DNA of 64,000 bases from Candidatus Woesearchaeota archaeon. GTDB taxonomy: Archaea; Nanobdellota; Nanobdellia; Woesearchaeales; GW2011-AR9. The notes under the pieces were generated by a model that saw only the letters and a program-made list of their open reading frames with translations, was not told where the DNA came from and did not search any database. Below, piece after piece: positions 6,399-63,862 of this stretch; the stretch's first letter is position 1, and each line of letters starts with the position of its first letter. Where the stretch lies: assembly GCA_016181265.1 (NCBI GenBank), contig JACOZP010000011.1:6127-70126 (forward strand), written 5' to 3'. Position numbers and translations under genes: made by a program.

Positions 6399-6857
6399 TT
6401 ACCGTCGGCGATAAATCTCTCTGTGCCTATAGCCAGCAGCAATTCCTTCTAATCTTCTGGGGATAGCTGTTGATGGTGGTGAGGTCATATACATAACGTC
6501 TGCTCGATGATTTTTAATAATCTCTTCGCTTTCAACAGGTGGTAAATCCCCCGGGGTTATATGTGTTGCAACGAGCAGTATCCCTTTGTAGCCATTTGCT
6601 AAGTCTACTAAATCGTGAGCAAAAGATCTTGTTTTATGAGAATAAGAATGAAGCCTGTTCCCCGTTTCGCGATGGATCACTGCGAGGTCGGGTTGTTCAT
6701 CGAGCAGGTACTTTAACCATCGCTCTCTCTCACCATCAAGCACTACTCTTAGACATTTTATATCTCGAAAACCACAGCCTTTTAGAGCATCCGAAACGAT
6801 CATATCGTGCACCGAAAAATCAAATAATGTTACTGCCGTTTCTCTGTTGTATGTCAT
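6399..6857 (-). CDS. hypothetical protein (152 aa) immediately downstream of the RNase P RNA
   Basis: Start trimmed to the ATG at 6857, which is preceded by AGGAGG (6865-6870). The longer track ORF (to 7022) overlaps the RNase P RNA. No secure family assignment. Confidence 0.6.
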   Translation of the reverse strand: MTYNRETAVTLFDFSVHDMIVSDALKGCGFRDIKCLRVVLDGERERWLKYLLDEQPDLAVIHRETGNRLHSYSHKTRSFAHDLVDLANGYKGILLVATHITPGDLPPVESEEIIKNHRADVMYMTSPPSTAIPRRLEGIAAGYRHREIYRRR

Positions 6858-6881
6858 TTGTTTTCCTCCTCGTTGAAAAGT

Positions 6882-7271
6882 GGTAGAGTGGCATAAGCCG
6901 CCTTCTGTCGGATCCAAAATGTTTACAGTGAAACATCGATGATCCGGGGAAGCATTCGACTGAGCGTTCATATGAACTTGCACCGACCAGATCCACAGAA
7001 ACAAGTTTCTGGGATCTTTCACATGATCGTTGTCATGGACAGGTTTCGCCGTTTCATCGTTCCCTACAGAGACGTCAACAGATTAACTTGTCTCTTTCGC
7101 AAGAGGCGTCGCCATTTCATTCCATTCTGCAGGACGTGTCGTTTCTGAGCCAGAGCCACGGGATTTCTCCGTCTCTCAGATGAGAGTGGTCAACACTATA
7201 GGGTTAGTGTCACACTGGTGGGCGGACTTTCCTCAGTTCCGAAGAACCGTAAGCTTCCTGCCACTGCTACC
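6882..7271 (-). ncRNA. rnpB: RNase P RNA (archaeal type)
   Basis: Minus strand carries CR-I GAGGAAAGTCC (7224-7234) and CR-IV-like ACAGAAGGCGGCTTA (6894-6908). The termini pair as P1 (GGTAG..AGTGGCA / TGCCACT..CTACC). Length is about 390 nt. Confidence 0.8.
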
Positions 7272-7290
7272 AAAAGGATGTTTTTCAAGC

Positions 7291-8226
7291 ATGTTTTTAA
7301 ATCTTTTGTGTAGAAACCGGATAGTAGTAATTTTACAAACTTTTAAAAAGAAAGTCTTGTTTGAACAAGAAATGTTACAGGTCTATCGCCGAGATAATTA
7401 CGAACTTGCGGGGAAGAACCTCTCTTTAGAAGAGACTAATTCTTTTGTTAGTAGCCTACGTACTCCACATCCATTATCTCTTCCACTTACTGATGAGCAA
7501 CAATTGGATTTAGAAGCGATGCTTTCCTGTTACCGACAATTTACACAAGATTTAGGTGTACATATCGATTATCGCTTTCCTGCAACACATGATTTTGTGA
7601 CTATTCTTCCTCCAGCTGATTTTGCCATTGTTAGTCGCAGGTATGGCCATCATCCTTCTCGGATAAGTGGCTTTACTAGGGGGCCGAGAATCTATGTAAA
7701 AGCGAAGAAATCAAAAGCGCGCGTGGCTTCTGTAGTGAATCATGAATTGGCTCATTTCTTGGGCTATACTCGCTATCGACTTTTTGATCTTCGATCGTCG
7801 GCATTAACTCTCCAAGATGTCGCTCAAAAGAGAAGCGGCTACGCATTCCGTCTTCCTCAACGTCGTCTCTTCTATGAATTCAATGAAGGTCTGACTGAAC
7901 TTACACATCAACAGATTAAGAGGGAGTATTGGTCGTCACATCGCCGTTTACAACACTATTCGCTAGTTTCTACTTCCAATTACCGTCTTCCAGTCTTATT
8001 CGATCAGGCACTCTTCACTTCTCTTGCTAGTGATCTTGGAAAACCAGTTGAGGAAGTCGTACGACGTTTTCAACGTGGTTATTTTCTGGGAAATGAAAGG
8101 CCTCTTCATCTTATAAAAAGAGCTTATGGTGAACAGAATTTCTCTGTCATTGCGCATCTTCCCAGAGAGGAGTGGGAATTTGTACAAACACTTAGGAAAA
8201 CTTCTTTGTGGGATATTCTTCGGTAG
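7291..8226 (+). CDS. putative zinc metallopeptidase (HExxH)
   Basis: VVNHELAHFLGY is followed by FNEGLTELTH. The start was moved off the RNase P RNA to the ATG at 7291; the ATG at 7372 is an alternative. Confidence 0.55.
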   Translation: MFLNLLCRNRIVVILQTFKKKVLFEQEMLQVYRRDNYELAGKNLSLEETNSFVSSLRTPHPLSLPLTDEQQLDLEAMLSCYRQFTQDLGVHIDYRFPATHDFVTILPPADFAIVSRRYGHHPSRISGFTRGPRIYVKAKKSKARVASVVNHELAHFLGYTRYRLFDLRSSALTLQDVAQKRSGYAFRLPQRRLFYEFNEGLTELTHQQIKREYWSSHRRLQHYSLVSTSNYRLPVLFDQALFTSLASDLGKPVEEVVRRFQRGYFLGNERPLHLIKRAYGEQNFSVIAHLPREEWEFVQTLRKTSLWDILR

Positions 8227-13698: not shown

Positions 13699-14601
13699 CT
13701 ACTTCGCACTCTCTTTGACGCGCAATTTCTCTTGGATCAGACTTTGATATTTGTAATCCAACGTTAATTTTACTTGTCGTACTTCGAGTGTCTTTGCGGC
13801 AAGCGCTTGTTTTAACTTACAAACAATCTCTACTTTGCCGTTGACTAGACGTGCTTCGTCAGCTTTGCCACCCGATTTACATTCCCATGCAGCATCGTCG
13901 ATGGAGAAGCCTAATTTATTAGTGAGACCAAACTCGCTTCCTAAAGTGGCCACATCTCCAGTCCCTTTATTTTCAACAGTGAATTTCAATGCGACAATAC
14001 CTTTACCTGCTGGCTCTTCGCTGACGCTAGTGACCGCAATCGGGGCGGCAGAAGCGAAGAATGCTTTTTGTCCCTGCACTTCACAAATGCGTTTATCAGT
14101 AAGATCTTCTTTAAGACAGACTTCAGGGACGATTGCTTGAGTTTGATATTTGTATTGAACATTGGCAAACCAAGTTCGATCTAATAAACCGACGACGTCG
14201 CTCTTGAATTTTGCATCGCTGGAGAAAGAGATAGTCTCTTCTCCTCCATTAGGAAGAAGTTCAGAGATTTTTTCAATCACTCCGCTGTTTTTTAGGGTCC
14301 AGGAAGGGATTCCTTCAAACTCTTCTTTAGAGAGTCCGGTGAGCGTGACGGTAATATCATCTTTTTGAATTTCATATTCTCCTTTATTATGGACCGTTAC
14401 TTCTACTGGAAACGTTTCCGTGTCAAAGATACTGGATACGCCTGCTTCTTCTACTCCGAATGGTTCGAACTCAGCAACTACGCCTTGGGTCCCACCAATA
14501 AAAACACCTTTTGATTGGGATTGTTGCTGTTCACCACCACAAGCAGTAAGTAAAAATAAGCTGAGTACTAAGATGGGTAATAAGAATAATCGTTTGTTCA
14601 T
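13699..14601 (-). CDS. secreted lipoprotein, two beta-sandwich-like modules (paralog family A)
   Basis: Lipobox LLTACGG, then VEVTVHNKGEYEI, YKYQTQAIVPEVC, LKFTVENKGTGDV and LTLDYKYQSLIQEKLRV. Paralogous to 15521..16468 and 49543..50409. Confidence 0.65.
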   Translation of the reverse strand: MNKRLFLLPILVLSLFLLTACGGEQQQSQSKGVFIGGTQGVVAEFEPFGVEEAGVSSIFDTETFPVEVTVHNKGEYEIQKDDITVTLTGLSKEEFEGIPSWTLKNSGVIEKISELLPNGGEETISFSSDAKFKSDVVGLLDRTWFANVQYKYQTQAIVPEVCLKEDLTDKRICEVQGQKAFFASAAPIAVTSVSEEPAGKGIVALKFTVENKGTGDVATLGSEFGLTNKLGFSIDDAAWECKSGGKADEARLVNGKVEIVCKLKQALAAKTLEVRQVKLTLDYKYQSLIQEKLRVKESAK

Positions 14602-15520: not shown

Positions 15521-16468
15521 TTACTGGGGGGTTTTCACAATCTTGATTGCTTTCTGAAATGATTGCATATAATTGTAATCTAAATCAATCAGTAACGGGC
15601 TTTGAAATGCACCTGTCCCTACTACATTAAATGAGCAAACAATTTTTCCGTTGCCATTATTCAAGCGGATAATGCCTCCGGCAGGATTACAGTTAATTAA
15701 TGAGCCACCACTAAATTGGACAGTATAAGCGACGCGATCTCGTTCCGTGATATCTGAAGATGGCTGGCCACATGATTGAAGATCGGAGTAAGGGCTGGAA
15801 ACTTTTCCAGAGCCGAAGTTCTGGACGTTGATTTCGAAGATGACACGTGTTCCAACCATGTTAACACCAACCGTGCTGATGCCTACGGGAGCACCTTGGC
15901 CACCACCTAGTCCAACGCTGCTTGGGGTACATACTTTTTGTTCAGATGTGATTTGATATAATGCCGGGTCGACACAAACTTGAGGACTTGCTCTTGTATG
16001 ATAATTATAACAGCTTTGGATATTGAGCGTGGGATTATATTCAAAGACGCCTTCGGGGAGGAAGATACTGGATGAGCGAAACTCTAGTTGATTTGATTCC
16101 CCGGCAAGATTATAGATGTTTTTCCCGGGTAATCTGCCGACGCGTTCAGCGCAAGAGCGAGGGATATTTAACCCGCCTCGAATGATATTGGGATCGAAGC
16201 CGGTAATCTGGATGAAACAGGAGCTAGCATCTATGTCATGATTCCCTTTATTGTTTACTTCGACAATCATCTCTAATTGGTCTTGATCATATAATGTCGG
16301 CGGCGGGAAGTTTGCCAGAAGGTTGATTTCTATTCCTTGTGAGCCACTTTGTACTTGCTTTAATGCTGCGGCGGTGTCCGAAGGGGCCGGTCCTGCTCCT
16401 TTAGAACAGGAAGTGATGAAGAGGATTAAGACTAGAAGAGCTACACTTAATATCATCCTCTTTTGCAT
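15521..16468 (-). CDS. secreted lipoprotein (paralog family A)
   Basis: Lipobox FITSCSKG, then MIVEVNNKGNHDI, CYNYHTRASPQVCV, GGGQGAPVGISTV, FEINVQNFGSGKV and LIDLDYNYMQSFQKAIKI. Confidence 0.65.
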   Translation of the reverse strand: MQKRMILSVALLVLILFITSCSKGAGPAPSDTAAALKQVQSGSQGIEINLLANFPPPTLYDQDQLEMIVEVNNKGNHDIDASSCFIQITGFDPNIIRGGLNIPRSCAERVGRLPGKNIYNLAGESNQLEFRSSSIFLPEGVFEYNPTLNIQSCYNYHTRASPQVCVDPALYQITSEQKVCTPSSVGLGGGQGAPVGISTVGVNMVGTRVIFEINVQNFGSGKVSSPYSDLQSCGQPSSDITERDRVAYTVQFSGGSLINCNPAGGIIRLNNGNGKIVCSFNVVGTGAFQSPLLIDLDYNYMQSFQKAIKIVKTPQ

Positions 16469-46241: not shown

Positions 46242-46261
46242 ACGTCTGTTGAAAGATATGT

Positions 46262-46283
46262 CCTATAAATAACTTTATATATT
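46262..46283. promoter_or_regulatory. back-to-back TATA boxes for pelA (minus) and the 46304 gene (plus)
   Basis: CTATAAATA is centred about 26 nt from 46241. CTTTATATAT is centred about 25 nt from 46304. Confidence 0.45.
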
Positions 46284-46303
46284 TCTAGTGTTTTAGAGGA
46301 ACG

Positions 46304-47518
46304 ATGGTGCATGTGGTGAGTACAGGTTTGTTGGGTGGTAAGAGAGGTCAAGCAGCAGGTAGTGCTGCGGTGTTTGTAGCGATCATTGCTGCACTTCTCG
46401 TTGCATTTATCATTCTTGTCAATCCTCAACAACGAGCAGAATTGTTAGGTGAACAAGGAACGACTTCTGTTGGCGGGACGACGGTTCCCTCCGGCTCGTT
46501 AGTCAAATCTTTATTAAAGGTTGCTCCCGGAAGAATTGATTATTTCAGCCAATCTGTGATCGAACATCCTCTTCCGGTGGTCACGATTCAAACGAGGACA
46601 GAAGCTAAAGTTCTTGCGGAGAAGAATGTGGTCTACGCAAAGAATGCTTTATTCTCCGACAAGGAAGATACGCTTTCTTTTTCTATTCCTGATTTAGCAA
46701 ATACAGGTAATGTTGTTCTGGGATTTCAGCTGCAAAGTTTAGAGGGATCTGTGATTGTTGCGGTTAACGGGGAGGAGGTCTTACGGACGGATGCGGGTGA
46801 GAAGATAAAACCTGTACTTATTCCACGTAATCTTCTGAGGGATGATAATATTCTTACGGTTACTGTTTCTTCGCCGGGAGCGGCATTTTGGCGGACGAAT
46901 TTTGTTAACATAGAGCATCTGCAGGTTGTTGCTGATGTGACGAGCTTGGAGGCCCAATCTTCCAAAAATGTTTTCCTTCTTTCAGAAGTGGAGAAAAAGA
47001 ATTTAGAGAAATTTGTATTAAAACTACGACCGCAATGCATCTATGGCAAAGTAGGAAAGTTATCCATTTTGGTGAATAGTAAAGAAGTGTATAATGGTCT
47101 TCCCGATTGCGACTTAGGTCTTCTTTCACTGGAATTGTCTCCTGAGAATACCCGTCAAGGAGAGAACGAAATTATCTTCTCTACGGAGAGTGGTCTTTAT
47201 GTATTAAATAATATTAATCTTATTTCAAGTCTACGCTCGATCGAATTCCCCACGTATTACTTTGAACTCTCCGAGGAAGATTATCAGAAAGTGATGAAGA
47301 ACGGTGTAAAAGCCCGTCTAGCCCTTAGTTTTGTGGATGTTGTGGCTGTAAAAGAAGCGGATATTTACTTTAATGGCCATCGTATTCCTTTTGATACTAA
47401 AGATGTCGTGTTTAATGTGGATGTGAATGATTTTGTCGTGCAAGGGAGCAATGCGGTTAAGATTAATCCACGTAAGACGCTAGAAGTTCGGGAATTGAGA
47501 TTGGATTTGATTAAGTAG
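46304..47518 (+). CDS. secreted/anchored protein with a class III (type IV pilin-like) signal-peptide-like N-terminus
   Basis: GGKRGQAAGSAAVFVAIIAALLVAFIILV is followed by a roughly 350-aa beta-rich ectodomain. Confidence 0.6.
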   Translation: MVHVVSTGLLGGKRGQAAGSAAVFVAIIAALLVAFIILVNPQQRAELLGEQGTTSVGGTTVPSGSLVKSLLKVAPGRIDYFSQSVIEHPLPVVTIQTRTEAKVLAEKNVVYAKNALFSDKEDTLSFSIPDLANTGNVVLGFQLQSLEGSVIVAVNGEEVLRTDAGEKIKPVLIPRNLLRDDNILTVTVSSPGAAFWRTNFVNIEHLQVVADVTSLEAQSSKNVFLLSEVEKKNLEKFVLKLRPQCIYGKVGKLSILVNSKEVYNGLPDCDLGLLSLELSPENTRQGENEIIFSTESGLYVLNNINLISSLRSIEFPTYYFELSEEDYQKVMKNGVKARLALSFVDVVAVKEADIYFNGHRIPFDTKDVVFNVDVNDFVVQGSNAVKINPRKTLEVRELRLDLIK

Positions 47519-47600
47519 GCGATTTTATTTGAGACAAGCCATTCTTCGTCGCAAGATTTTTATAGGTTCTGAACTTACGTCTTCCTGAAAAGAGGGAGAT

Positions 47601-49541
47601 ATGACTGCTGACGAAGATTCAAAAGAGAAAGACGCGGAAGGAGAGGAGGAAGTGGCTTCGGAGAAGAGAGAAGAGGCATCGGCCACCAAGAAAGAGGCTT
47701 CTGCGGTTAGCAAATTGGGTTCTTCTTTTAAAAAATGGGCGACAACATATGATAAAGAACGTGAAATCGCTCAGGCGCAGGCATTGAAACGCGGCGCGCA
47801 GAGTGTTGGGCGGACGGTTGGCACTCCGATGCTGGCTGCGGTCAAGACAAGCAGTATCTTACTTCTCCTGATTGGTATTGTCCATTATTTTCTTCGCTAT
47901 TTCTATGGTACTTCTACTGCTATTTTTATCATCTCTCTTGTTCTCTTTTTGATTGCAGGTTTTGCTCTTGCGGCACGTTTGGAAAAAGAACGGGTCGCTA
48001 TACTTTTACCAATGCTTCTGTTTGTGATTTGGTATTGGGTGTTTAATGCATCGATCAGTATCAGTATTATTCTCGGCTTTTTGATTATTGGAGGAATCAT
48101 CTTGGGCCTCATTGCGCTTCTGACAAAAGGAGAGAGCATTGCAGCTGAACTGATGGGATTTATCCCGGTTGTCTTCCTGTTTTTTGATGTGGGATTACTC
48201 TCGTTTTTAGTAGAAAAGTTAAATCTTACGATCACGCCGTTGATTGAAGTTCTGGTAGTATACATGCCTTGGTGGGCGTATCTTGGCTTGTTTACTCTTC
48301 CGGAACATGTGACGGAGAGCAAGTTCTTGGGCGGGTTGTTGGGTCTCTTGAAGGTGGTGGGATTTATGTATATCATTCTCTTGGTCATTTCCGTTGCTAT
48401 CCCGGGGGTAGGGTATGAAGAAGCGACGACAACAGTTCTTCCTTCTATCGAAGAGCTTGAACAAGCTCAAGGGCGAGTCCGAGGGCAAATTGATAAGGGC
48501 GAGAGTTCATTTATTTCTAATTTTATTTGTCTGACGACCGATCCCACTAATTTGAATGTGTGTGTGATAGCAAGACAGGCAAAAGTAAAATACCAAACTA
48601 CTTGTAATGCCAAAGAAGAAGTAAAACAAGGGGTGGTTTCGCTTGATGATTGTGTTGCTGAGGAAGAGAAAAAAGTTAAAGAGAATGTACAAGTAGCCGG
48701 AGCGGTCAATAAAGATGTCAAACCGACGGTCGCACGGATTGATATTCCTCCTGCGCCGCTGCAATATACAACCCGACCAGTTTATTCTGCGACGCTTCTC
48801 GTAGAGAATCCTCGTGCTGTAGAGTTGCATTTTGTTCTGAATTGTACGTTTAAGAGAGGGGTGGTGATCATTCCCGGTGAGGTTTCCGTGCAAGGGACGA
48901 CGGCACAAGAAGTTCCACTCCCCATCAAAGCAGAAGTTGCACAGATTCCGTTAACCTGTTCTCCAGCGAAGGATTTTACAGATAAAGAAAAAGCGGCATA
49001 TCAGATGATGATCCAAGCAACGATCCAGAAGATGGTAACGGAATCATCTTTAGAACGAGCTTTCTTGGGACAGGTAAGTGAAGAAGAGAGGGTCAAATTA
49101 ACTTCTCAAATCACTCGCGATCGCTTTTCGTCTGCACAGAAAGTGTATTCTAAAGCACCAGCGGAGTTCGCTCGTATCAATTTTGGATTTGGCAGTCCAG
49201 AGCAGAATCCTATTCTTACTTCAACTGATGTTCCGCGTTTTGTGTCTTCGGTGGAAAATGTTGGCGGGGGGAAGATTGTGGCGATCGAGGCGTATTCGTA
49301 TTCTTTACAAGAACGAGGATTCTCTGTCCGTAGTGGCCAACAAGATTGTTTGTCAGGGAAAAAGATAAAACTTCCGGAAGATGTACCTCCTTCGTTCGGG
49401 TTAGGAACGTGTTTCCTTACTCTCCCTGGTGATCTCAGCAGCTTTCAAGGGACACCCAAGATAGAAACCTTCTTTGCGAAGTTAGTGTACGATTATAGCA
49501 TCTCGCGTGAAGCGACAGTACAAGTGCAGGTGATCAGTTAG
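47601..49541 (+). CDS. polytopic membrane protein with an acidic N-terminal head and a family-A-like C-terminal ectodomain
   Basis: Starts with DEDSKEKDAEGEEEVASEKREE and has multiple TM spans across roughly aa 90-330. The C-terminus has VSSVENVGGGKIVAIEAY and AKLVYDYSISREATVQVQVIS. Confidence 0.6.
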   Translation: MTADEDSKEKDAEGEEEVASEKREEASATKKEASAVSKLGSSFKKWATTYDKEREIAQAQALKRGAQSVGRTVGTPMLAAVKTSSILLLLIGIVHYFLRYFYGTSTAIFIISLVLFLIAGFALAARLEKERVAILLPMLLFVIWYWVFNASISISIILGFLIIGGIILGLIALLTKGESIAAELMGFIPVVFLFFDVGLLSFLVEKLNLTITPLIEVLVVYMPWWAYLGLFTLPEHVTESKFLGGLLGLLKVVGFMYIILLVISVAIPGVGYEEATTTVLPSIEELEQAQGRVRGQIDKGESSFISNFICLTTDPTNLNVCVIARQAKVKYQTTCNAKEEVKQGVVSLDDCVAEEEKKVKENVQVAGAVNKDVKPTVARIDIPPAPLQYTTRPVYSATLLVENPRAVELHFVLNCTFKRGVVIIPGEVSVQGTTAQEVPLPIKAEVAQIPLTCSPAKDFTDKEKAAYQMMIQATIQKMVTESSLERAFLGQVSEEERVKLTSQITRDRFSSAQKVYSKAPAEFARINFGFGSPEQNPILTSTDVPRFVSSVENVGGGKIVAIEAYSYSLQERGFSVRSGQQDCLSGKKIKLPEDVPPSFGLGTCFLTLPGDLSSFQGTPKIETFFAKLVYDYSISREATVQVQVIS

Positions 49542-49542
49542 A

Positions 49543-50409
49543 ATGAAGAGAAAACGGTTAATTTTTGGACTGATGCTTCTTTTAGTCTTGGTCATCAGCG
49601 GTTGTGGCAGCGGCAGTGAGAATACACTTCAACGGAATTATAAGTTAGGATATGGCACGCCGACGTTAGTAATTGATGAGCAGCGTTCACCTTCTCTGGT
49701 GTATCAGAATCGACCGTTTTCACAGGTAATGACGTTGTTTAACAAAGCTGGTTACCCACTGCAGAATGTACGTGTGACGCTGGGCAGTTATGATCAAACA
49801 TTTCTCTCCGTGAATAATCCGCAGCAATTATTCTCTACAGTTGAAGCGAATAGCGCTTTCAATGATGATAACGGGGGCAGGGCAGATGTTTTGTTTAACG
49901 GCCAGGTGTTAGATCTGCATGGCGCCGAAGAGCGGCGGGAGCCGTATCGTCTTTATGTCGCGTATGATTCTAAGATGGAATTTGCACCGACGATCTGTGT
50001 GAATGTAGCGCGTTATGATGTCTTTGATGCGGGGTGCGAAATGCCGAAAAGGGCTCTTTCCTTTGCCGGGCAAGGAGCACCTTTGGCAGTAGTCTCCATG
50101 GAAGAGGTTATTGTTGGTGGGGATGTTCCAGAACTAGAACTGCGATTAAAAGTAGCAGATAAAGGAAATGGAGATGTTAAAGGTGTTAAATTAGGTCAGG
50201 CTCGTTTGGGAAATACTCCGTTGGTATGCCAGTTTAGGGATATGTTGGAAAATGTTGATAAGAGTTTTTCTTTCCGCAACAATCGCCGTGATGGAGAATT
50301 GTTATGTACGGCAACATTGTCTGAAAAGAATTCTTATCAGACGACACTGTTTATTGAATTTTTCTACAGCTATGATTTCAGTGTGGCAAAACAGCTAACG
50401 ATTAAATAG
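49543..50409 (+). CDS. secreted lipoprotein (paralog family A)
   Basis: Lipobox VISGCGSG, then VMTLFNKAGYPLQNV, VAYDSKMEFAPTICV, AGQGAPLAVVSM, LRLKVADKGNGDVKGV and LFIEFFYSYDFSVAKQLTIK. Starts 1 nt after the upstream stop. Confidence 0.65.
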   Translation: MKRKRLIFGLMLLLVLVISGCGSGSENTLQRNYKLGYGTPTLVIDEQRSPSLVYQNRPFSQVMTLFNKAGYPLQNVRVTLGSYDQTFLSVNNPQQLFSTVEANSAFNDDNGGRADVLFNGQVLDLHGAEERREPYRLYVAYDSKMEFAPTICVNVARYDVFDAGCEMPKRALSFAGQGAPLAVVSMEEVIVGGDVPELELRLKVADKGNGDVKGVKLGQARLGNTPLVCQFRDMLENVDKSFSFRNNRRDGELLCTATLSEKNSYQTTLFIEFFYSYDFSVAKQLTIK

Positions 50410-50554
50410 TGAGCGACAATGTTCAGGCATAAAAACATGTCACTCACTATATAGTAAACGACAAATGAGTTTTATTCTATCGTTTACTAAAACCGTAAAC
50501 TTTATATTGTTTCTTCTTCTTCTTTTGATTATTGTTTCAAAATGAGGTGTTGTG

Positions 50555-51910
50555 ATGATGAGAAAAATAATGTTGGTCTTTTTTTTTGCTTTGATAGTGG
50601 CGGTAGTCGTGGGCTGTCAGAGGGGAGTAGGCGATGAAAGTGGTGATGAAGCTAGTGCTTTAGCGGGGATGGCAGTGAGCTCAGAGGTTGGTGATTGTAA
50701 AAAAGCTACTGCTTGTCAAGCATTGTATAATCAGTGTTCAAATGAGAAGGCGTGTAGAACTACTTATACCAGTAGTCAAAATTCGTGTAAAAGCTTAGCG
50801 GGTTCTGTAAAGACTGATTGCCTTAAAGCAGCGATTAAAGTATACAGTGAATGTCTTAATGGCTGTTATGATTCGGCGATTGCGACGTGGAAAGAGAGTA
50901 AAACGGGGCCGTCTTCTTTCCTCTCTGCCGTGAAGTGGGGGGATATCAATAATGATGGCAAGGTTAGTTCCACAGACTTGCAATGTTATGCTCTTGCTTC
51001 TCAGAATTCGAGTGCTCCTTGTAGAAAGCAGTCGCTCGCTGATGCCGATTTAAATTGCGATAACATTATTACTGCTGCTGATCAGGCCATTGTAGCCAAT
51101 ATTATGACCGGCGGTTCTTTACCACAAGATGTGAATGTCAATGGTATTCCTGATTGTAAGGAAAAAAATGTCAAACCAATTGGCTCAACGTGTACGGATT
51201 CCGATAGTTCTGGAGCAGTACCAAAAACATCTGTTTTCAATCAGTCTGTTTATACAACTGGAAATGTATTAGCAAATGGGACTGTTACTTTTGATGACTA
51301 CTGTAGTAATGGCTATTGGTGGGACAAATCAGTATCTGGCACGAAAGTTTACGAGTGGTATTGTGATGCCGTTGCGGGGAACTCACTCGAGGGTTATGAC
51401 TGTTCTAAGGATGGTGCGACGTGTCAGAATGGTGCCTGTGTGAAAAAACAGCCGCAATGTCCAGCATGGATGACGACGGCAGGTGAAAATCAATGGGAAA
51501 TTATTTGTACCCAGAATCCAGTTAGTCCAGACAATACACCCGGCTCTTGGTCTGAAAAATGGCATGCTGCTCGCGTGAAATACGATAAAGATTGTAAACT
51601 TTCAGGACTAGATTACAACAAGACCTGCGGAGATACAGCAAATAGTTGTTCCACGGAAAAGGGCTGTATTGACTTATCAAGTGGGTTCGCTTGCTTTAGC
51701 TCCAATTCTGGGATGAATAGCACCGGACTATTTGATAATTCAGGAAACACTGCTAAGAGTTGTGTTGTTCCGAAGATGTATGAAACTTTAGGTTTAGATG
51801 AGTATACATCAACTTGGCAATGTAGAACAGATAACACAACATTTGCCGGATGTATGCCATTAAGCCAGTATGAAGGGCGATGTAAGGAAGCAGGCACATG
51901 TAGCAAGTAG
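50555..51910 (+). CDS. Cys-rich lipoprotein with dockerin-like calcium-binding repeats
   Basis: Lipobox VVVGCQRG and about 30 Cys. The two repeats are GDINNDGKVSSTDLQ and DADLNCDNIITAADQAIVANIM. GAGGTG lies 5 nt upstream of the ATG. Confidence 0.65.
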   Translation: MMRKIMLVFFFALIVAVVVGCQRGVGDESGDEASALAGMAVSSEVGDCKKATACQALYNQCSNEKACRTTYTSSQNSCKSLAGSVKTDCLKAAIKVYSECLNGCYDSAIATWKESKTGPSSFLSAVKWGDINNDGKVSSTDLQCYALASQNSSAPCRKQSLADADLNCDNIITAADQAIVANIMTGGSLPQDVNVNGIPDCKEKNVKPIGSTCTDSDSSGAVPKTSVFNQSVYTTGNVLANGTVTFDDYCSNGYWWDKSVSGTKVYEWYCDAVAGNSLEGYDCSKDGATCQNGACVKKQPQCPAWMTTAGENQWEIICTQNPVSPDNTPGSWSEKWHAARVKYDKDCKLSGLDYNKTCGDTANSCSTEKGCIDLSSGFACFSSNSGMNSTGLFDNSGNTAKSCVVPKMYETLGLDEYTSTWQCRTDNTTFAGCMPLSQYEGRCKEAGTCSK

Positions 51911-51913
51911 GAA

Positions 51914-51946
51914 TTTTTCTCTTTTTTTTCTTTTTATTTTTTCTTT
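51914..51946 (+). terminator. oligo-T tract after the Cys-rich lipoprotein gene
   Basis: TTTTTCTCTTTTTTTTCTTTTTATTTTTTCTTT starts 4 nt after the TAG. Archaeal terminators are oligo-T runs. Confidence 0.5.
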
Positions 51947-51995
51947 CGATCTTCATGGAAAGTTTTAAATAGTGAATGTATAATCAATAATACAT

Positions 51996-52586
51996 ATGTA
52001 TAATAAAATAAACATCACTGAGAACGGCTTACAAATTATTTCTTTATTTACCAATGGATTTGATAGAGAGTATTATATCCGGGAAGTTGAAAAATTGCTT
52101 AAAATAAGCCCTCGAACGGCACAGTTAATTCTCGAGGATTTAGAAAAAAAAGGGATTATAGAATCAAAAGTAAAAGGTAAAATCAAATCTTATAAGTTGA
52201 ACATAAATGAAGTAAGCAACAGATATCTTACATTAGTTGAGCAATACAAATCAATCGCTTTTATGGAAAAACATCTTCTTGTGAAAGAAGTTATAACTAA
52301 AATAAGTCAGGTTATTAATGGAATCGGTATTATTTTTGGAAGTTATGCGAAGGGAATAGCTCACGAGGAATCAGATTTAGATATTTTAGTTGTAGGGGAC
52401 TATGATAAAGAAGAAATTAAGAGAGTTTCGAGAAATTTAGGGATTGAAATTAGTGTCAAGTGTTATCCACTAAAGATATTTGAAAAAAATCTAAATCGTG
52501 ATATCTTTTTGAAAGAAGTATTGAAGAACCATATAGTTTTTAAAAATACGGAATTGTTTATTCAAACGGTGAGGGCGTATGGATAA
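51996..52586 (+). CDS. wHTH-fused minimal nucleotidyltransferase (MNT, antitoxin-like)
   Basis: GIIFGSYAKGIAHEESDLDILVVGD is the GS-x10-DxD NTase motif, preceded by an N-terminal wHTH-like region of about 80 aa. Confidence 0.75.
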   Translation: MYNKINITENGLQIISLFTNGFDREYYIREVEKLLKISPRTAQLILEDLEKKGIIESKVKGKIKSYKLNINEVSNRYLTLVEQYKSIAFMEKHLLVKEVITKISQVINGIGIIFGSYAKGIAHEESDLDILVVGDYDKEEIKRVSRNLGIEISVKCYPLKIFEKNLNRDIFLKEVLKNHIVFKNTELFIQTVRAYG

Positions 52587-53058
52587 AATAAAATGGTGTG
52601 TCGGAAAGAAAGAAGGTTTGAGTTTAATCGAACCTAATAAAAATCTTGCAGAAGCATACACCACGAAAGCTGAAGAAGCGTTAGAGTCAATGAGAGTAAA
52701 CGTCATAAAAGATTGGAAAATATCGACTGCATATTACACTCTTTATTTTTCTCTGTATTCCGTTCTGACGAAAATTGGTCTGAAATGTGAGATTCACTCT
52801 TGCACTCTGGCCTTTGCAAGGAGATTTCTGAGAGAATTTTTGAGTGAAGAAGATAGTGACTTTCTGGAGGATTCTCTAAAAGCAAGAATAGATTCTCAAT
52901 ATTATATTGACCGAACAGTTCCAGATGAGCAATATCATCAGATGATAAAGAAGGCTCCCCTATTTTTAGTAAAATGCAAGTCAATCTTAATTAAGCTTAA
53001 TGAAAAGAAGATAAACGAGATCAGAAGAGAATTTCAGAAAGCATTAACTGAGAAATAA
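52579..53058 (+). CDS. HEPN-domain protein (toxin-like partner of the MNT)
   Basis: Helical. AYYTLYFSLYSVLTKIGLKCEIHSCT...LKARIDSQYY. Overlaps the MNT gene by 8 nt. Confidence 0.7.
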   Translation: MDKIKWCVGKKEGLSLIEPNKNLAEAYTTKAEEALESMRVNVIKDWKISTAYYTLYFSLYSVLTKIGLKCEIHSCTLAFARRFLREFLSEEDSDFLEDSLKARIDSQYYIDRTVPDEQYHQMIKKAPLFLVKCKSILIKLNEKKINEIRREFQKALTEK

Positions 53059-53742: not shown

Positions 53743-54828
53743 ATGATGGCAAGAAATAATCAACGATCATTCCAGAAAAGAATATTTTTTGTCCTTTTGC
53801 TGGTTACATTGTTATTGGGATTTCTTGCGATGGCGAAAGCAAAAGGTCTGTTGATTTCTGCTCAGCCGATACCGGTGGTAGAGGGGAACACCGTTTTTCT
53901 TGATTCTTTAACACTTGATCAGAAAATCGCTCAAATGATCATCGTTGCTGGTCAGAAATGGGATGTTCAATCTTGGAAAAAGATGCAGATGGGTGGTATT
54001 CACCTTTATGCGAAAGCAAATGAGAGTGTTTTTCGCGAGACGATTGCGGAGTTTCAAGAAGGAATGGTTATCCCTTTTCTGGTGTCGGTCGATCTGGAGG
54101 GATGTCAGAATCCTTTTGCGGCATTCAAGAATTTTACGGCAGCGGCAGATGTAACGACTGATGAAAAAGCATGGGAGAAAGGGGTAGAAGAGGGAACGTA
54201 TCTCTCTTCGTTAGGGATTACTCTTAATTTTGCGCCGGTTGTTGATCTGGAGGATACGATCTGGAAATGCAGGAGTTATCCCGGTGATGCTCAACAGATT
54301 ACGGATTTAGCGGAAGCATATGTTTCTGGTGTACAGAATAAGACTGTCTTAGCGACGGCAAAACATTATCCCGGAAAGACGCTGGTGATCCACGATCCTC
54401 ATAAATATTTAGTTGAGGCGACTATTTCTGAAGATGATGTTTATCCGTATGGAAAATTGTCTTCTTCTGTCAAAGCAGTTATGATCAGTCATATAATCTC
54501 TTCTGGAGCAGTGAATTCACAGGGTGTTCCGGCAGTGGCGTCCACCGAAGCAGTTAGCGATTTAAGACAGGGATTTGATGGTTTGATCATTACTGATGAG
54601 ATTAATATGCTCGGTCTCAGAAACTTTTATCCAAATCTTGATGAGCTTTATTTGGCTGTATTTAAAGCTGGTAATGATCTTATCATTAATTTTAATGAAG
54701 ACCCCAACGAGATTCGACGGATGATTGTGGTGGTTAAGGAAGCTGTTTTACGTGGGGAAATTAACGAGGAGCGTATTAATGCATCTGTCCGGCTGGTTCT
54801 AGCGGCGAAAGGGTTTATAGTAAAGTAA
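53743..54828 (+). CDS. membrane-anchored glycoside hydrolase family 3 (NagZ-like beta-hexosaminidase domain)
   Basis: LTLDQKIAQMIIVAG...VSVDLEGC...GITLNFAPVVDL...TAKHYPG. N-terminal anchor IFFVLLLVTLLLGFLAMAKA. Confidence 0.75.
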   Translation: MMARNNQRSFQKRIFFVLLLVTLLLGFLAMAKAKGLLISAQPIPVVEGNTVFLDSLTLDQKIAQMIIVAGQKWDVQSWKKMQMGGIHLYAKANESVFRETIAEFQEGMVIPFLVSVDLEGCQNPFAAFKNFTAAADVTTDEKAWEKGVEEGTYLSSLGITLNFAPVVDLEDTIWKCRSYPGDAQQITDLAEAYVSGVQNKTVLATAKHYPGKTLVIHDPHKYLVEATISEDDVYPYGKLSSSVKAVMISHIISSGAVNSQGVPAVASTEAVSDLRQGFDGLIITDEINMLGLRNFYPNLDELYLAVFKAGNDLIINFNEDPNEIRRMIVVVKEAVLRGEINEERINASVRLVLAAKGFIVK

Positions 54829-55570
54829 TCGTTGATTGCAAAGTAAGGTGATTAACTTCAATGATTGAATTCTTCGTTATCGGTTTCCAATTGAGATCTG
54901 AAAGAGATTCTATTTTCTCTGAACTGATGATCAAAAGATCTTTTCCTCGGCCGATCCACATTTGCAGGTAGCGAGGATATTTTGTCCAAGAGGAAGTAAT
55001 GTATGAACTCTTCTTCGTTGAAAAGATGAAATTAGAATCGCGTTCCGTAGGCAGCTGGTTAAGTGCTTTCTGAAGTGCGGTGCGATAGTCTTTGTTTCCT
55101 TTCTTTTCGTCTTTTTGGATCTGAGAGATGATGGAGAAGAAGATCTTTTCAGAATCGGTTGTTCCCTGTAGTTTGAGTTCTGGATTATAACCAATGTCTT
55201 CTCGAATCGTACCGTTATGACAGAAGACATGCTCTGTGCCCGTTTTGTCTTTGTAATAAAATGGATGCGTATTCTCCAAACAGACATTCCCCACGCTTGC
55301 GGCACGAGTGTGAAGAAGAGCGAATGTAGTCTTGCTAGGAAGAGATGATATGAGCGGGTCGTTGAAGATAGCGTCGGTCGATCGATGGATGAACAGATTG
55401 TTTTTGTTATCGATAAACGCAATTCCCCAACCATCTTTATGTTGTCGTGATCCTAGGCCGGTCTTTTCGTTCCGCTCATGGAGAAAAGTCTGGTCGAGTG
55501 CCATATGTTTTATAGCATCTACTACTGTTGGAAGCTGTACGTTTCCGATAGCGAGAAGCATGCGGCACAT
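54815..55570 (-). CDS. class II (Ntn) glutamine amidotransferase, YafJ/EgtC-like
   Basis: N-terminal MCRMLLAIG provides the Cys2 nucleophile. Also has GWGIAF and HTRAAS. Confidence 0.7.
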   Translation of the reverse strand: MCRMLLAIGNVQLPTVVDAIKHMALDQTFLHERNEKTGLGSRQHKDGWGIAFIDNKNNLFIHRSTDAIFNDPLISSLPSKTTFALLHTRAASVGNVCLENTHPFYYKDKTGTEHVFCHNGTIREDIGYNPELKLQGTTDSEKIFFSIISQIQKDEKKGNKDYRTALQKALNQLPTERDSNFIFSTKKSSYITSSWTKYPRYLQMWIGRGKDLLIISSEKIESLSDLNWKPITKNSIIEVNHLTLQSTITLL

Positions 55571-55594
55571 GGGGGGTGTAGATCTTTTAGAATT

Positions 55595-56773
55595 TTAAGT
55601 GTTGAGTGTGTCTTGAACGTACATTCTTCTCATGAAGAGATTTGCTACTGCTGCACCTTTTGGAGATAATCGGTCGTTGTAGCCACTTCTTTTCATATGA
55701 CTAGTGAGAAGACGTGCTGGGCTTTTACCTGTTTCTACCATGTGGTAGAGTGGTTCCAGAAATTTCTGGTCTTCTTGAGGAAGACCGCGCTCTGCAAAAG
55801 ATAATAATCTAAAAGTATTCCTCGCAATCTCGCGGGAGAAACCATTTTGAATTGCTTCTGTTTCTAATTTTTGTACTTGAGAGAAACGAGGCAGGACTAC
55901 CGCTTTTTCACTCAGATCGAATTCATCTCCTGTTGAAATGATTACGGGGATGGATCGACTAATCATGTAATCGTTGATTCCTTTGTAGAGGGCCATAGTG
56001 GCATGGGCATAGCGTAAAGGAACAGAGTCCGGTGTGCGTAGTTCCCATGTTCCTGATTTGCCAATACTATCTCTCTTCCTGATAGGATGATAGCCGACAT
56101 TCTCTCTTTGAAACAAAGTTGTGAACTCTTCCCAAGAAAGGCCTGATGCTTCTCCCCATTGGAGTAATCGGAGATCTTTTTGTCGTTCTAATTCTTTGAT
56201 GGTAGAAACGTAAGGGAGATTTCGGCTGTGAAGCGGCCAGCGCTGAAGAGCGATGTTCCGGACTCTATCTACGCGGTGGCAAGCAATCTCATTTTTTCCA
56301 TCACGAGCATAAGGAGATGTTGAATTGATGGCAATCGACAGCGGGTCGAGAGCAGTGAAGAGCTGGTGTTGTGCTAGTTCTCTTCTTCGTGCTTGGTCAA
56401 TATGTCCTTGGAATGCACAAATCCCTCTCAAGCTTCCATCAACACCGAGGATTCTCGCATACGTTCTTGTTCGAGGGTTGCCAGAACTGATTCCTTCTCC
56501 CGCTCCATATTCGCTGGCGGCGATAACGGTGACTCCGTTATCTTCACATATCTTTTCCAATAACTCTAGATCACGTGTGGTTTGTTTGTGAAGTTTAGTG
56601 ATTGTATCTGCTGGGGGAGAATTATATTCTACCATCGCTTTTGTTCCTTCTTTGACAAACTGTCCCTTGTTGCGGGGGTCTTGGAGAATGATCGGTGCAG
56701 TGTTAGAGATATAGCCTTCTCTATCGATAACTAAGAGTTCATATTCGGTGCCAATATTTGATACTGTTTCCAT
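55595..56773 (-). CDS. carboxylate-amine ligase (glutamate--cysteine ligase family 2, YbdK-like)
   Basis: NIGTEYELLVIDREG at the N-terminus and about 390 aa, lying 24 nt upstream of the amidotransferase gene. Confidence 0.65.
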   Translation of the reverse strand: METVSNIGTEYELLVIDREGYISNTAPIILQDPRNKGQFVKEGTKAMVEYNSPPADTITKLHKQTTRDLELLEKICEDNGVTVIAASEYGAGEGISSGNPRTRTYARILGVDGSLRGICAFQGHIDQARRRELAQHQLFTALDPLSIAINSTSPYARDGKNEIACHRVDRVRNIALQRWPLHSRNLPYVSTIKELERQKDLRLLQWGEASGLSWEEFTTLFQRENVGYHPIRKRDSIGKSGTWELRTPDSVPLRYAHATMALYKGINDYMISRSIPVIISTGDEFDLSEKAVVLPRFSQVQKLETEAIQNGFSREIARNTFRLLSFAERGLPQEDQKFLEPLYHMVETGKSPARLLTSHMKRSGYNDRLSPKGAAVANLFMRRMYVQDTLNT

Positions 56774-56965
56774 TTTTTGATGCTACTGCTGCTGTTTCTT
56801 TGCTCATCCCCCATTTTGCGGTCGTGTTGACGGGGAGTTCTTTATATTCTTTTCTGTCTTGGATTTTATTTCTTTCCTTAGATTTTATCTAAGAATACCC
56901 CTCTAAAACCGCATTCAAATGAAAAAAAAGTAGTGGATTCTCAAAATAGTTCAAATATTCGCTTT

Positions 56966-57562
56966 TTAGAAAATGATGATGCGATGATCCCTGTGCTTCT
57001 TACTTTCTATAGAAGTGAATGCTTCTTGCAGAAGATCTTCTGTGATGTGAAGCAGGCCTTGAGAGGGGTCGATGACGGAATATTTTTCGTCTTTGAACCC
57101 GACGATTGCGAGAAAGTGGGAGGAATTTCTTTTCGTGTCACGTAAAGGTTTGCAGTTTAATCGAAGAAGGAGTGTCTTCTGTTGTTTTACTAATTGGATT
57201 ATCTCCGAGAAATGAAGATCTTTGACCAGTAGAGGTATACCTGCTTTTTCTGCGGTTTGACGATGAAGTTCTTCTGAGAACGCAGCTAATTCAATTTCTT
57301 CTTTTGTGTAACGATAGAAGCGGTAGTCTGGAAAATGATATTCTTTCCTTTCGACGATGACCGTAGGATGAAACCCTTGCTGATGTGCATAGAGCGCGAG
57401 GGCATAGATCGATGAACCACGTGTAGGAAGGGTGACTGTCTCTTTCCAGATCATGAATTCGGTTTCTCTGTTGAGGGGGATTTTGGAATCAAGCCGGTGA
57501 AGAATGTTGAGAAGAGAAGCAGCCGCGGTGGTGAACGGAGTTGTTTGGAGATAAGGCTGCAT
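56966..57562 (-). CDS. peptidase C39-like / BtrH-like fold protein lacking the catalytic Cys
   Basis: [16 protein letters not shown] occupies the position where C39 domains have Q..CG.A.L. The later HFLAIVGFKDEKYSVIDP resembles the His/Asp region. Confidence 0.45.
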   Translation of the reverse strand: MQPYLQTTPFTTAAASLLNILHRLDSKIPLNRETEFMIWKETVTLPTRGSSIYALALYAHQQGFHPTVIVERKEYHFPDYRFYRYTKEEIELAAFSEELHRQTAEKAGIPLLVKDLHFSEIIQLVKQQKTLLLRLNCKPLRDTKRNSSHFLAIVGFKDEKYSVIDPSQGLLHITEDLLQEAFTSIESKKHRDHRIIIF

Positions 57563-62498: not shown

Positions 62499-63251
62499 AT
62501 GATGATTAGTGTAAAGAAATATTTTACTTTTGTTCTGATGTTTTTATTGTTACTGTTCTCTGTTTTCTCTGCGGTTGCAGCGAATGAATCGGATTCTGAT
62601 AGTCCAGCAACTGGCCAGGCAACGTATATTACTGATGTTAAAGATGAGCCCATACAATATGATGCTGAAGGAAATATTATTAGCAAGACAACGATCAAAG
62701 GGATTACAATCAGAGAAACGGGAAGTGGTTACGATCCTAACTTTGATAAGAGCAAAGGGTACACTACTCCGATCCGTAAAACTCCTGGCCCCTCTCCAAG
62801 AGGTCCGGAAAGTGAGACTGGCGTCGGAAAGGTAATCCAAGGAATAATTGGTGTAGGAAGCCTTACTTTTTTATTTGGTGGCAATGCAGATAGTCAGCTA
62901 TGTGGCTTTCTTCGCATTTTGCTAGCTATTCTTGTCTTTACACTATTATACCTCTTATTATCGATGATTCCTGGCTTGACACGAGGAATCGCAATTACCA
63001 TTGGTATTATCTTGGCGATTGTCGTTGCAGTATTTACTCCTTGTGTTGTCCTATTAGCTTGGGGGACTTCTTATGCTACGCTGTTTGCGTTTGTTGTTGT
63101 CTTCGGTCCGGTATTAGCCGGACTAATGTTGTTGCTTTTTACTCCAACCCCTAATCGTCGGGTGGCGTTATTGAAATTAATGATTGTTGTTATATTAATG
63201 TGGCTTGTTCGCGAAATCAGTTATTGGGCGATGCAGATTGGAGGAAAGTAA
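62499..63251 (+). CDS. signal-peptide plus 4-TM membrane protein (tandem paralog B1)
   Basis: Signal is LLLLFSVFSAVAANE. A roughly 85-aa spacer precedes the conserved block GSLTFLFG...FLRILLAILVFTLLYLLLSMIPGLTRGIAITIGIILAI...WGTSYATLFAFVVVFGPV...TPTPNRR. Confidence 0.6.
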   Translation: MMISVKKYFTFVLMFLLLLFSVFSAVAANESDSDSPATGQATYITDVKDEPIQYDAEGNIISKTTIKGITIRETGSGYDPNFDKSKGYTTPIRKTPGPSPRGPESETGVGKVIQGIIGVGSLTFLFGGNADSQLCGFLRILLAILVFTLLYLLLSMIPGLTRGIAITIGIILAIVVAVFTPCVVLLAWGTSYATLFAFVVVFGPVLAGLMLLLFTPTPNRRVALLKLMIVVILMWLVREISYWAMQIGGK

Positions 63252-63310: not shown

Positions 63311-63862
63311 ATGATGAAAAGACATTTTTTGACATTGTTATTAGTTATTCTCTTGTTGCTCCCTAGTTTCTCTCTTGCTTCAGCACATGGAACGTCTACG
63401 ACGTCGGGTGATAATTCTCTAGATATTGGTGGATTTGTTACAAAAATCTTAAGTGTTGGTTCACTCTCTTTTCTGGGAAGTCCCGATAATCAATTTATCG
63501 GCTTCATCAGAATATTAATGGCTGTCCTTATTTTTACATTATTATATTTGGGGTTGTCAATGATTCCAGGAATAACCCGTGGGATCGGGATTACTATCGG
63601 TATCCTATTAGCGATCATGGTCAGTGTATTTATGCCGGCAGATGTTTTAATCGCTTGGGGAACATCCTATGCAACATTGTTTGCCTTTGTGATCGTTTTT
63701 GGGCCGGTGATTGCGGGGGGCGCGTTTCTCTTGTTGACACCAACCCCAAGTCGTGGGGCGGCTGGTCTTAAAATAGTTATATTATTTATATTATGGTGGC
63801 TTGTGGCTCATATTGCTGACTGGGCCCATAAATTAGGAAGTTCTGTAGGAGGGAGCATCTAA
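63311..63862 (+). CDS. signal-peptide plus 4-TM membrane protein (tandem paralog B2)
   Basis: Same block as B1: GSLSFLGS...FIRILMAVLIFTLLYLGLSMIPGITRGIGITIGILLAI...WGTSYATLFAFVIVFGPV...TPTPSRG. Confidence 0.6.
   Translation: MMKRHFLTLLLVILLLLPSFSLASAHGTSTTSGDNSLDIGGFVTKILSVGSLSFLGSPDNQFIGFIRILMAVLIFTLLYLGLSMIPGITRGIGITIGILLAIMVSVFMPADVLIAWGTSYATLFAFVIVFGPVIAGGAFLLLTPTPSRGAAGLKIVILFILWWLVAHIADWAHKLGSSVGGSI

Follow-up and report, generated by a model that had tools for sequence, protein, structure and literature searches.

Few uncultured archaea are as widespread as the Woesearchaeota, whose cells are believed to live attached to others or to depend on them; to our knowledge, no conserved surface machinery has been recognised in them. 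Four adjacent genes of a Candidatus Woesearchaeota metagenome-assembled genome (MAG; locus tags HYT55_04335-04345) raise the question of whether such a machinery exists and how it might work. They occupy positions 46304-51910 of the stretch analysed (64,000 nucleotides (nt) of contig JACOZP010000011.1, hereafter the window). In a preliminary description, made from the letters alone, they were interpreted as a four-gene envelope locus and as a candidate adhesion or cell-contact system. The surface location of the products, the lack of a known enzyme and the synteny in related genomes support the envelope part of this interpretation; adhesion and cell contact are treated below as proposals.

A conserved three-gene unit

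The list of open reading frames (ORFs) reproduced the four co-directional genes, their N-termini and lipoboxes, and the spacers of 82, 1 and 142 nt that separate g1-g2, g2-g3 and g3-g4, respectively. All four are encoded on the plus strand: g1 (46304-47518; identified in the six-frame ORF list) specifies a protein of 404 amino acids (aa), g2 (47601-49541) a 646-aa polytopic membrane protein with a large ectodomain, g3 (49543-50409) a 288-aa lipobox protein with two immunoglobulin (Ig)-like domains, and g4 (50552-51910; GTG start) a 452-aa Cys-rich lipobox protein containing a type I dockerin.

A scan of the GTDB species representatives with a g1 profile yielded matches in 118 species; the 80 best loci were retrieved, 65 of which were informative, i.e. 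contained enough downstream DNA. All 118 species are represented by Woesearchaeota or 'Nanoarchaeota' MAGs, many of them mislabelled as Methanosarcinales. The g1-g2-g3 triad was found in 60-61 of the informative loci, and 59 of the 65 passed a strict test (a g2-like ORF of 540-760 aa immediately followed by a lipobox protein of 230-330 aa). In L067 g3 is broken by a stop codon, L031 carries g2 and a diverged lipobox ORF, and in four of the 65 loci (L049, L054, L083, L087) g2 and g3 were not found nearby. Sequence searches returned 15 relatives of g2, 13 of g3 and more than 216 of g1 (the latter at approximately 50% identity). The neighbourhoods of the most distant g2 matches and of distant g1 matches displayed the same gene order throughout: a g1-like ORF of ~395 aa, a polytopic protein of 590-660 aa, and a ~290-aa protein whose start overlaps the preceding stop. 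An exhaustive g2 profile search of 1.84 billion representatives identified only 250 proteins, nearly all of them full-length; g2 thus constitutes a closed family. L013, L016, L020 and some 30 further loci come from records with the title 'uncultured Methanosarcinales archaeon', in which this Woesearchaeota-specific locus is flanked by the same genes; these titles look mislabelled.

In 45 of 59 loci, the stop codon of g2 and the start codon of g3 share a 4-nt overlap (a 1-nt gap separates them in the window), an arrangement that couples the translation of g3 to that of g2. The median length of the g1-g2 spacer in relatives is 80 nt. Adjacency within the triad reached 92-94%, whereas the values of the flanking genes (adjacent Pelota and those downstream) were 21-67%: Pelota is directly adjacent in 38 of 66 loci (anywhere upstream in 55/66, 83%), and the downstream flank contains gpsA in 30/57, grx (glutaredoxin) in 38/57 and GH3 in 12/57. 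Few gene sets are linked as tightly as the triad in this region, which is occupied mostly by housekeeping genes (in the window these are SecDF, RNase P RNA, RFC, fibrillarin/Nop5, a ribosomal protein cluster, SecY, PheRS and Pelota). Three genes rather than four, g1-g2-g3, make up the conserved unit. The synteny thus supports the previously proposed unit as far as these three genes are concerned; g4, whose homologues are restricted to the closest relatives and which is preceded by a TATA-like box and followed by a T-rich tract, is only a lineage-specific neighbour, a recent accessory outside the conserved core.

The three proteins differ in their rates of change. Mean pairwise identity among 60 species was 77% for TrmB, 58% for Pelota and 52% for g1, as compared with 35% for g3, 31-32% for the Ig domains of g2, 26% for its transmembrane domain and 25% for its stalk. 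Thus, g1 is almost as conserved as Pelota, and g2 and g3 are fast-evolving. After the distances of Pelota and TrmB had been regressed out, a correlation of distances was still observed between the first Ig domain of g2 and g3 (r = 0.45), equal in strength to that between the two Ig domains of g2 (0.43); the residual co-variation of g1 was weaker (0.21-0.28). Its conservation, near that of a translation factor, makes g1 a target for antibodies or probes, cryo-electron tomography labelling and glycan-binding assays, as well as a phylogenetic marker.

Anchoring signals and folds of the triad proteins

Searches with g1-g4 and their distant orthologues against Pfam, NCBIfam and PDB sequence profiles returned nothing significant except the dockerin of g4, the PDB matches being at chance level, which agrees with the earlier statement that no enzymatic component was recognisable in the locus; no description of the g1-g2-g3 triad was found in the literature. 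The anchoring signals and folds are of known kinds, while the three families, present in at least 118 species-level genomes, and their combination appear to be new as judged from Pfam, NCBIfam and PDB sequence comparisons. Three archaeal anchoring routes, namely a class III signal, a lipobox and a polytopic anchor, are predicted within one locus, and the lipoboxes and the class III-type signal bear out the earlier prediction of extracytoplasmic or membrane-bound products. The conserved Cys of g1, g3 and the g2 ectodomain, described below, point to the same location. The proteins were not assigned to known unrelated families, homologues were syntenic, and signals and lipoboxes were predicted; none of the outcomes that the preliminary description had named as speaking against it was observed.

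g1 had been described as pilin-like on the basis of its N-terminus (GGKRGQAAGSAAVFVAIIAALLVAFIIL). A class III signal comprises a basic leader with G at position -1, cleaved ahead of a hydrophobic domain (PMC6098224). In g1 the putative class III signal peptidase site, pointed to by conservation, is K13-R14-G15-Q16 (46340..46351, plus strand), with the cut between G and Q; the leader is short and basic, and the hydrophobic stretch AAGSAAVFVAIIAALLVAFIIL follows. A KRG|Q-type motif was detected in 55 of 60 orthologues, with short leaders (median 8 residues), and in a 30-sequence alignment Q16 was invariant and K13 and G15 were conserved in at least 90%. The N-terminal pattern of the family is x(3-12)-KRGQ-[SA]AAGAAVL[LI]AIIA.L[IL].F[IV]IL[IV]PP.ERA.LL.E. 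The conserved hydrophobic helix (aa 17-39; 46352..46420, plus strand), recognised by conservation and in the AlphaFold2 (AF2) model, where it covers residues 18-38, is followed by a PP/NP-x-ERAELLGE motif, and residues 13-50 form the best-conserved stretch of the protein (66% identity order-wide).

The AF2 model of g1 (pLDDT 83) contains an N-terminal helix (residues 18-47), a disordered linker (49-62) and then beta-sandwich modules. The linker is rich in Ser and Thr and varies from 19 to 34 aa across the family. In a pilin, the head would pack against the N-terminal helix, on its C-terminal half; in the g1 model, the disordered, variable linker lies between the two. Thus, the class III-type signal of the earlier interpretation stands and the pilin body does not: as modelled, g1 has a pilin-type signal followed by a linker and three jelly-roll modules. 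The first of these, with an N-terminal extension, spans aa 64-216 (46493..46951, plus strand; AF2, Foldseek and hhalign), the second aa 217-312 with a conserved C245-C269 pair (46952..47239, plus strand; hhalign and alignment), and the third aa 313-404 (47240..47515, plus strand; AF2 and a weak match to Glyco_hydro_2_N2). Residues 120-212, within module 1, match module 2 as an internal repeat (hhalign probability 97%, E 1.5e-10), and the repeated motif 'G.L.I.(L/I/F)NG.EI ... (G/E)N.I.F' resembles the GH2_N signature.

Foldseek searches with g1 against PDB retrieved galactose-binding domains of GH35/GH2 enzymes, Cry protoxin, carbohydrate-binding domains of BcsB, and PNGase F, and those against viral models retrieved F5/8-C, PA14 and tail-fibre modules; the E-values ranged from 1e-8 to 1e-4 and the probabilities from ~0.96 to 1.0, yet the TM-scores were just 0.15-0.24. 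All sub-threshold Pfam matches of 30 family members belonged to the jelly-roll/galactose-binding class (best E 0.01-0.06), and every Pfam match of g1 was below the threshold for membership of a curated family. A BcsB-like or PNGase F-like function was considered and rejected: the likeness is that of jelly rolls at the domain level (TM-scores ≤0.2), and no synthase or catalytic residues could be argued for. The modules are similar in fold, and in the GH2_N-like motif, to galactose-binding-like and carbohydrate-binding-module jelly rolls (GH2, GH35, BcsB, F5/8 type C, PA14); in contrast to those of the GH2/GH35 type, they lack a catalytic domain and are tethered to the membrane by a prepilin-type helix.

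The AF2 model of g2 has a pLDDT of 73 overall and ~90 in the ectodomain. The cytoplasmic, acidic and Ala-rich tail (aa 1-76; 47601..47828, plus strand) is predicted to be disordered (pLDDT <50 for residues 1-81) and is followed by a membrane domain of about seven transmembrane helices (aa 77-266; 47829..48398, plus strand; AF2), for which the positive-inside pattern suggests an N-in/C-out orientation. The extracellular part starts with a helical stalk (aa ~280-362; 48438..48686, plus strand; AF2) containing the invariant C310, C321, C335 and C351, and continues with two Ig-like beta-sandwiches: the first at aa ~365-490 (48693..49070, plus strand; AF2 and Foldseek), with invariant C415 and C453, and the second at aa ~515-646 (49143..49538, plus strand), with VENVGGGKI, invariant C583 and C604, and YDY. 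All eight Cys of the ectodomain are invariant order-wide. The acidic head and multi-transmembrane core described earlier were thus recovered, together with an ectodomain of ~365 aa instead of ~300; the head itself is variable between lineages (18% identity) and missing in L001, L006 and L008. With the whole model, Foldseek returned only Ig- or fibronectin type III-like ectodomain matches (RbmA, transglutaminase barrels, VPS26C and chaperones of chaperone-usher systems). The membrane domain, at 26% identity, retains only W225 (60/60) and D196 (53/60; acidic in 56/60) order-wide, which argues against catalysis. In line with this, a lipoprotein or prepilin signal peptidase or a lipidation enzyme was rejected as a candidate function of g2 (one conserved acidic residue and no Asp dyad or Arg pair), as was a GT-C, Lgt/AliA-like or peptidase assignment of its transmembrane domain, which found no Pfam, NCBIfam or PDB match in support.

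The signal peptide and lipobox of g3 (MKRKR...VISGC21; 49543..49605, plus strand) end in a Cys that is invariant in 60/60 sequences. A lipobox-like motif ending in Cys was present in 59 orthologues, which had been selected on that motif; most have canonical residues, and the median position of the Cys is 20. The pattern [LVI][ASTVI][GAS]C was recognised in g3 (VISGC), g4 (VVGC) and two unlinked ORFs of the window, starting at 13699 (LTAC) and 15521 (ITSC). Beyond the lipobox, g3 has four invariant Cys (two pairs), a GQG motif that lies between the two domains and is likewise invariant, and the motifs N.G.G ... C ... C ... Y.Y, which it shares with the second Ig domain of g2. The alignment of the g3 family with the g2 ectodomain (hhalign probability 90%, E 1.7e-6, 240 columns) shows that g3 is a paralogue of the g2 head. 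With the g3-family hidden Markov model (HMM), ORFs 15521..16468 (minus strand; E 4.6e-39; with a GQGAP motif) and 13699..14601 (minus strand; E 1.8e-26) were identified as further paralogues, and these HMM and hhalign profiles confirm that the g2 ectodomain, g3 and the two ORFs share a module. Plain BLASTP linked only g3 with 15521 (1e-4) and 15521 with 13699 (6e-14). The codon usage of 13699-14601 is ribosomal-protein-like (rank 10/59, as compared with 36-42 for the triad), and this ORF may encode the abundant member of the family.

Both lipobox proteins and a lipidation enzyme, AliA, are known from DPANN archaea (PMC12462473). g3, g4 and the two paralogues share with known substrates of Lgt/AliA a basic n-region, an h-region and [LVI]x[GSA]C at about residue 20, and their lipidation is predicted accordingly. 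What sets g3-type proteins apart from known lipobox lipoproteins is the mature part, which belongs to a two-Ig-domain family not described before and has the invariant linker motif GQG(A)P.

Possible roles of the triad

The reading that we favour, at a probability of about 0.45, is that the triad forms a passive, membrane-anchored surface platform of Woesearchaeota-type DPANN archaea with a glycan-binding and structural role. No NTPase was detected in any neighbourhood examined, and it is the lack of an energy source and of a catalytic signature that points to passive binding and support. In such a platform, g2 would be held in the membrane by about seven helices, with its disordered tail in the cytoplasm and, outside, a disulfide-stapled stalk carrying the two-Ig head. 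g3 would be produced in step with g2, because the stop and start codons overlap, exported and lipid-anchored at Cys21; as a free paralogue it may pair with the g2 head to give a pseudo-dimeric Ig head. g1 would be exported, a class III signal peptidase would cleave it at KRG|Q, and its conserved helix would retain it, either in the membrane or against the helices of g2; it would display three lectin-like jelly rolls on a flexible Ser/Thr-rich tether. The ligand would most likely be a conserved glycan, located either on a partner cell or on the cell's own envelope; the high conservation of g1 suggests such a conserved ligand, be it a common glycan or the cell's own envelope, or else an activity not yet recognised.

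Given the lectin-like folds of the models, a role of the triad in adhesion is plausible. Lectin-like surface proteins with an N-terminal transmembrane helix have been proposed to act in host recognition by a cultivated DPANN archaeon (bioRxiv 10.1101/2023.10.27.564410). One of these, MJ1_0179 of Nanobdella, resembles g1, when compared by description, in combining such a helix with a lectin-type beta-sandwich; however, its lectin domain is of the concanavalin type, and the Nanobdella proteins are encoded by single genes and carry many glycosylation sites, unlike the three-gene module. A further-reaching proposal, that the triad is a self-contained, ATPase-independent cell-contact organ of essentially all Woesearchaeales, in which g1 forms a lectin arm on a g2/g3 base and which serves attachment to, and possibly exchange with, partner cells, seems unlikely; if true, it would provide the first conserved molecular handle on host interaction in this large uncultured DPANN order.

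Several observations weigh against a glycan-binding platform. An order-wide identity of 52% is unusually high for an adhesin facing diverse hosts, and this conservation of g1 would be explained at least as well by an enzyme or by a conserved endogenous ligand. The TM-scores of the Foldseek matches of g1 and g2 were low (0.1-0.25), the likeness being limited to the domain level, and the Foldseek lists obtained for the whole g2 model contained no match to its membrane domain, for which a channel or transporter role may be considered. The mirror-tree signal between g2 and g3 is modest and suggestive only, since local rate effects could produce it. Finally, the RGQAAG of the window, with G at +4, fails the last position of what we take to be the FlaFind-type pattern, which most orthologues (RGQSAA) pass.

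DPANN archaea rely on scavenging, and a capture-and-uptake system would fit this habit: g1 and g3 would bind the substrate and g2 would act as a seven-helix conduit (a channel or secondary carrier) for a host-derived compound, glycan or lipid. We consider this quite improbable. In its favour are the membrane-embedded acidic D196 and the invariant W225 of g2, the missing Foldseek match of its membrane domain among the lists shown, and the position of gpsA 3' of the triad in 30/57 loci. There is also an analogy with lipoproteins or class III-signal binding proteins that serve transporters; binding proteins with such class III signals are widespread in archaea (bioRxiv 10.64898/2026.04.22.720090). 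However, among the folded parts the membrane domain is conserved least (26% identity) and has only two conserved positions, in which it differs from transporters with a defined substrate site; neither an ATPase nor a known permease family was detected, the folds of g1 and g3 are not of the periplasmic-binding-protein type, and the adjacency of gpsA is no tighter than general synteny.

Equally doubtful is the possibility that g1 is a substrate of a type IV filament (TFF) machine encoded elsewhere and is assembled into a short, bindosome-like surface structure, with g2 and g3 as accessory or anchoring proteins. The KRG|Q site and the N-terminal helix of g1 are very strongly conserved, and in pilins such conservation of the helix reflects helix-helix packing; moreover, Ig-like accessory proteins are known from archaellum loci. 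On the other hand, the g1 head is set off from the helix, unpacked, by the flexible variable linker. No T2SSE/T2SSF components (PilB/ArlI, PilC/ArlJ) were detected in g1-g4, the scanned window neighbours or L001-L008, nor was Peptidase_A24 among the window ORFs scanned; more generally, neither the window nor the related loci whose gene families were inspected contained a gene for an ATPase, platform protein or peptidase of this kind. In ~1 Mb of related loci only g1 orthologues, and no small pilins, carried a KRGQ signal, a search uninformative beyond those loci. TFF systems do exist in some DPANN archaea/Nanoarchaeota, and class III signals are widely distributed among non-pilin proteins of archaea (bioRxiv 10.64898/2026.04.22.720090). 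Among such proteins, the sugar-binding proteins of the Sulfolobus bindosome share with g1 a basic leader ending in G, Q at +1, a helix and a globular non-pilin body; they differ in that the g1 body consists of three lectin-like jelly-roll modules instead of a periplasmic-binding-protein fold, and g1 has no adjacent ATP-binding cassette transporter or Bas/TFF genes.

The least probable readings are two. The first is a surface layer (S-layer), in which g2 would serve as a membrane stalk of the SlaB type and g3, g1 or both as subunits of a lattice or coat. Ig-like domains are the building blocks of archaeal S-layer proteins, which in most DPANN lineages have yet to be identified (bioRxiv 10.1101/2023.10.27.564410); the stalk-plus-Ig architecture, the family of Ig-like paralogues and the lipid anchoring would suit this role. 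As in the SlaA/SlaB system of Sulfolobales, g2 is a membrane-anchored helical stalk with Ig-like domains, and a neighbouring gene encodes a further Ig-like surface protein. In contrast to SlaB, which has a single C-terminal helix, g2 is anchored by ~7 N-terminal helices, and there is no sequence or profile similarity. Candidate S-layer proteins of DPANN archaea are large and highly expressed and carry 13-17 glycosylation sites (bioRxiv 10.1101/2023.10.27.564410), whereas the triad proteins are small (g3 and g1 have 288-404 aa), average in codon adaptation to the ribosomal-protein set (rank 36-42/59) and depleted in sequons. In g1, g3 and both paralogues, 0 N-x-S/T sequons were observed against 9 expected, with 0 of 2000 shuffles as low; for g1 and g3 together the figures are 0 against ~5, and the family means (families of L009-L088) are 0.6 per g1 and 0.1 per g3, a striking avoidance of N-glycosylation sites. 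In g4, six sequons were found, which is the chance level. It is the depletion of sequons and the average codon bias that make a classical S-layer unlikely, and g1 is, in addition, far more conserved than usual S-layer proteins.

The second, that three functionally unrelated surface proteins merely inherited their order within a housekeeping region, draws on the fair overall synteny of the neighbourhood (PheRS, TrmB, Pelota, glutaredoxin) and on the origin of every locus from one order-level clade, but is hardly compatible with a triad adjacency above that of every flanking gene, the g2/g3 overlap, and the paralogy and co-variation of g3 with the g2 head.

The dockerin gene and the surrounding region

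As described earlier, g4 is Cys-rich (31 Cys), has a VVGC lipobox and contains a dockerin: Dockerin_1 of Pfam was matched at aa 130-183 with 25.3 bits (gathering cut-off 22.9; E 1.8e-5). The module (aa 126-188; 50927..51115, plus strand) has two calcium-binding loops (DxNxDxxxxxxD), DINNDGKVSSTD and DLNCDNIITAAD, both intact. This match above the gathering score and the two loops are what g4 has in common with cohesin-dockerin systems; it differs from them in its carrier, a Cys-rich lipoprotein without an enzyme module. No Cohesin match was obtained among the ~44 window ORFs scanned, and the dockerin would attach to a cohesin protein not yet found. A check of the window copy for internal repeats was negative. 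Homologues of g4 were limited to the closest relatives, namely L004/L005 (32% identity) and L009/L011 (N-terminal fragments). A second lipobox protein of ~230-310 aa was observed directly 3' of g3 in L009, L011, L051, L072, L077, L080, L082, L084 and L085; it is partly g4-like in L009/L011 and may be an extra g3-type paralogue in the other seven loci.

The divergent intergenic region between Pelota (minus strand) and g1 (46242..46303; 62 nt) contains the TATA-like sequence TTTATATA and a GAGG 5 nt before the g1 ATG. The g1-g2 spacer (47519..47600, plus strand; 82 nt) contains a T-run, the TATA-like TTTTTATAGG and GAGGGAG ahead of the g2 ATG. In the g3-g4 spacer (50410..50551, plus strand; 142 nt), the TATA-like CTTTATAT and a GAGGTG were identified; g4 therefore probably has its own promoter there, and ATG codons located 1-2 codons downstream of the GTG fit the GAGGTG Shine-Dalgarno sequence better than the GTG does. 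The sequence 3' of g4 (51911..51950, plus strand) is a T-rich tract resembling archaeal terminators. Rfam and tRNA scans gave no match within the four-gene locus, and ARAGORN found no tRNA gene in the whole window (1-64000), in which a strongly positive AT skew is confined to the ribosomal protein cluster (~24-34 kb).

The downstream flank varies. GpsA, a bacterial-type glycerol-3-phosphate dehydrogenase (NAD_Gly3P_dh), is notable in an archaeon; examples of its gene 3' of the triad are L002 10962-11936, L006 11520-12464, L007 11832-12821 and L008 11026-11970. The window has no gpsA at this place and carries g4 and a HEPN/nucleotidyltransferase pair there instead. This pair (51996-53058, plus strand), an MNT-type nucleotidyltransferase with an N-terminal helix-turn-helix and a HEPN protein with overlapping stop and start codons, resembles toxin-antitoxin modules and is located between g4 and the glutaredoxin gene. 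The distant relatives L001, L002 and L006-L008 lack the pair at this site, where L004 has only a short nucleotidyltransferase ORF.

Elsewhere in the window, an archaeal RNase P RNA (RF00373) was identified at 6882-7271 (minus strand; 110 bits, gathering score 84). ORFs 6399-7022 (minus strand) and 7180-8226 (plus strand) overlap it, neither has a Pfam match, and at least 6399-7022 is probably not a gene. Tandem paralogues without a Pfam match (62499-63251 and 63311-63862, both plus strand), which are 57% identical over 157 aa, have N-terminal signal peptides. A conserved trio at 54815-57562 (minus strand) encodes a class-II glutamine amidotransferase, a GCS2-type glutamate-cysteine ligase-like protein and a C39-like peptidase (DUF3335), and parts of it were also detected in the related loci L001, L004 and L006.

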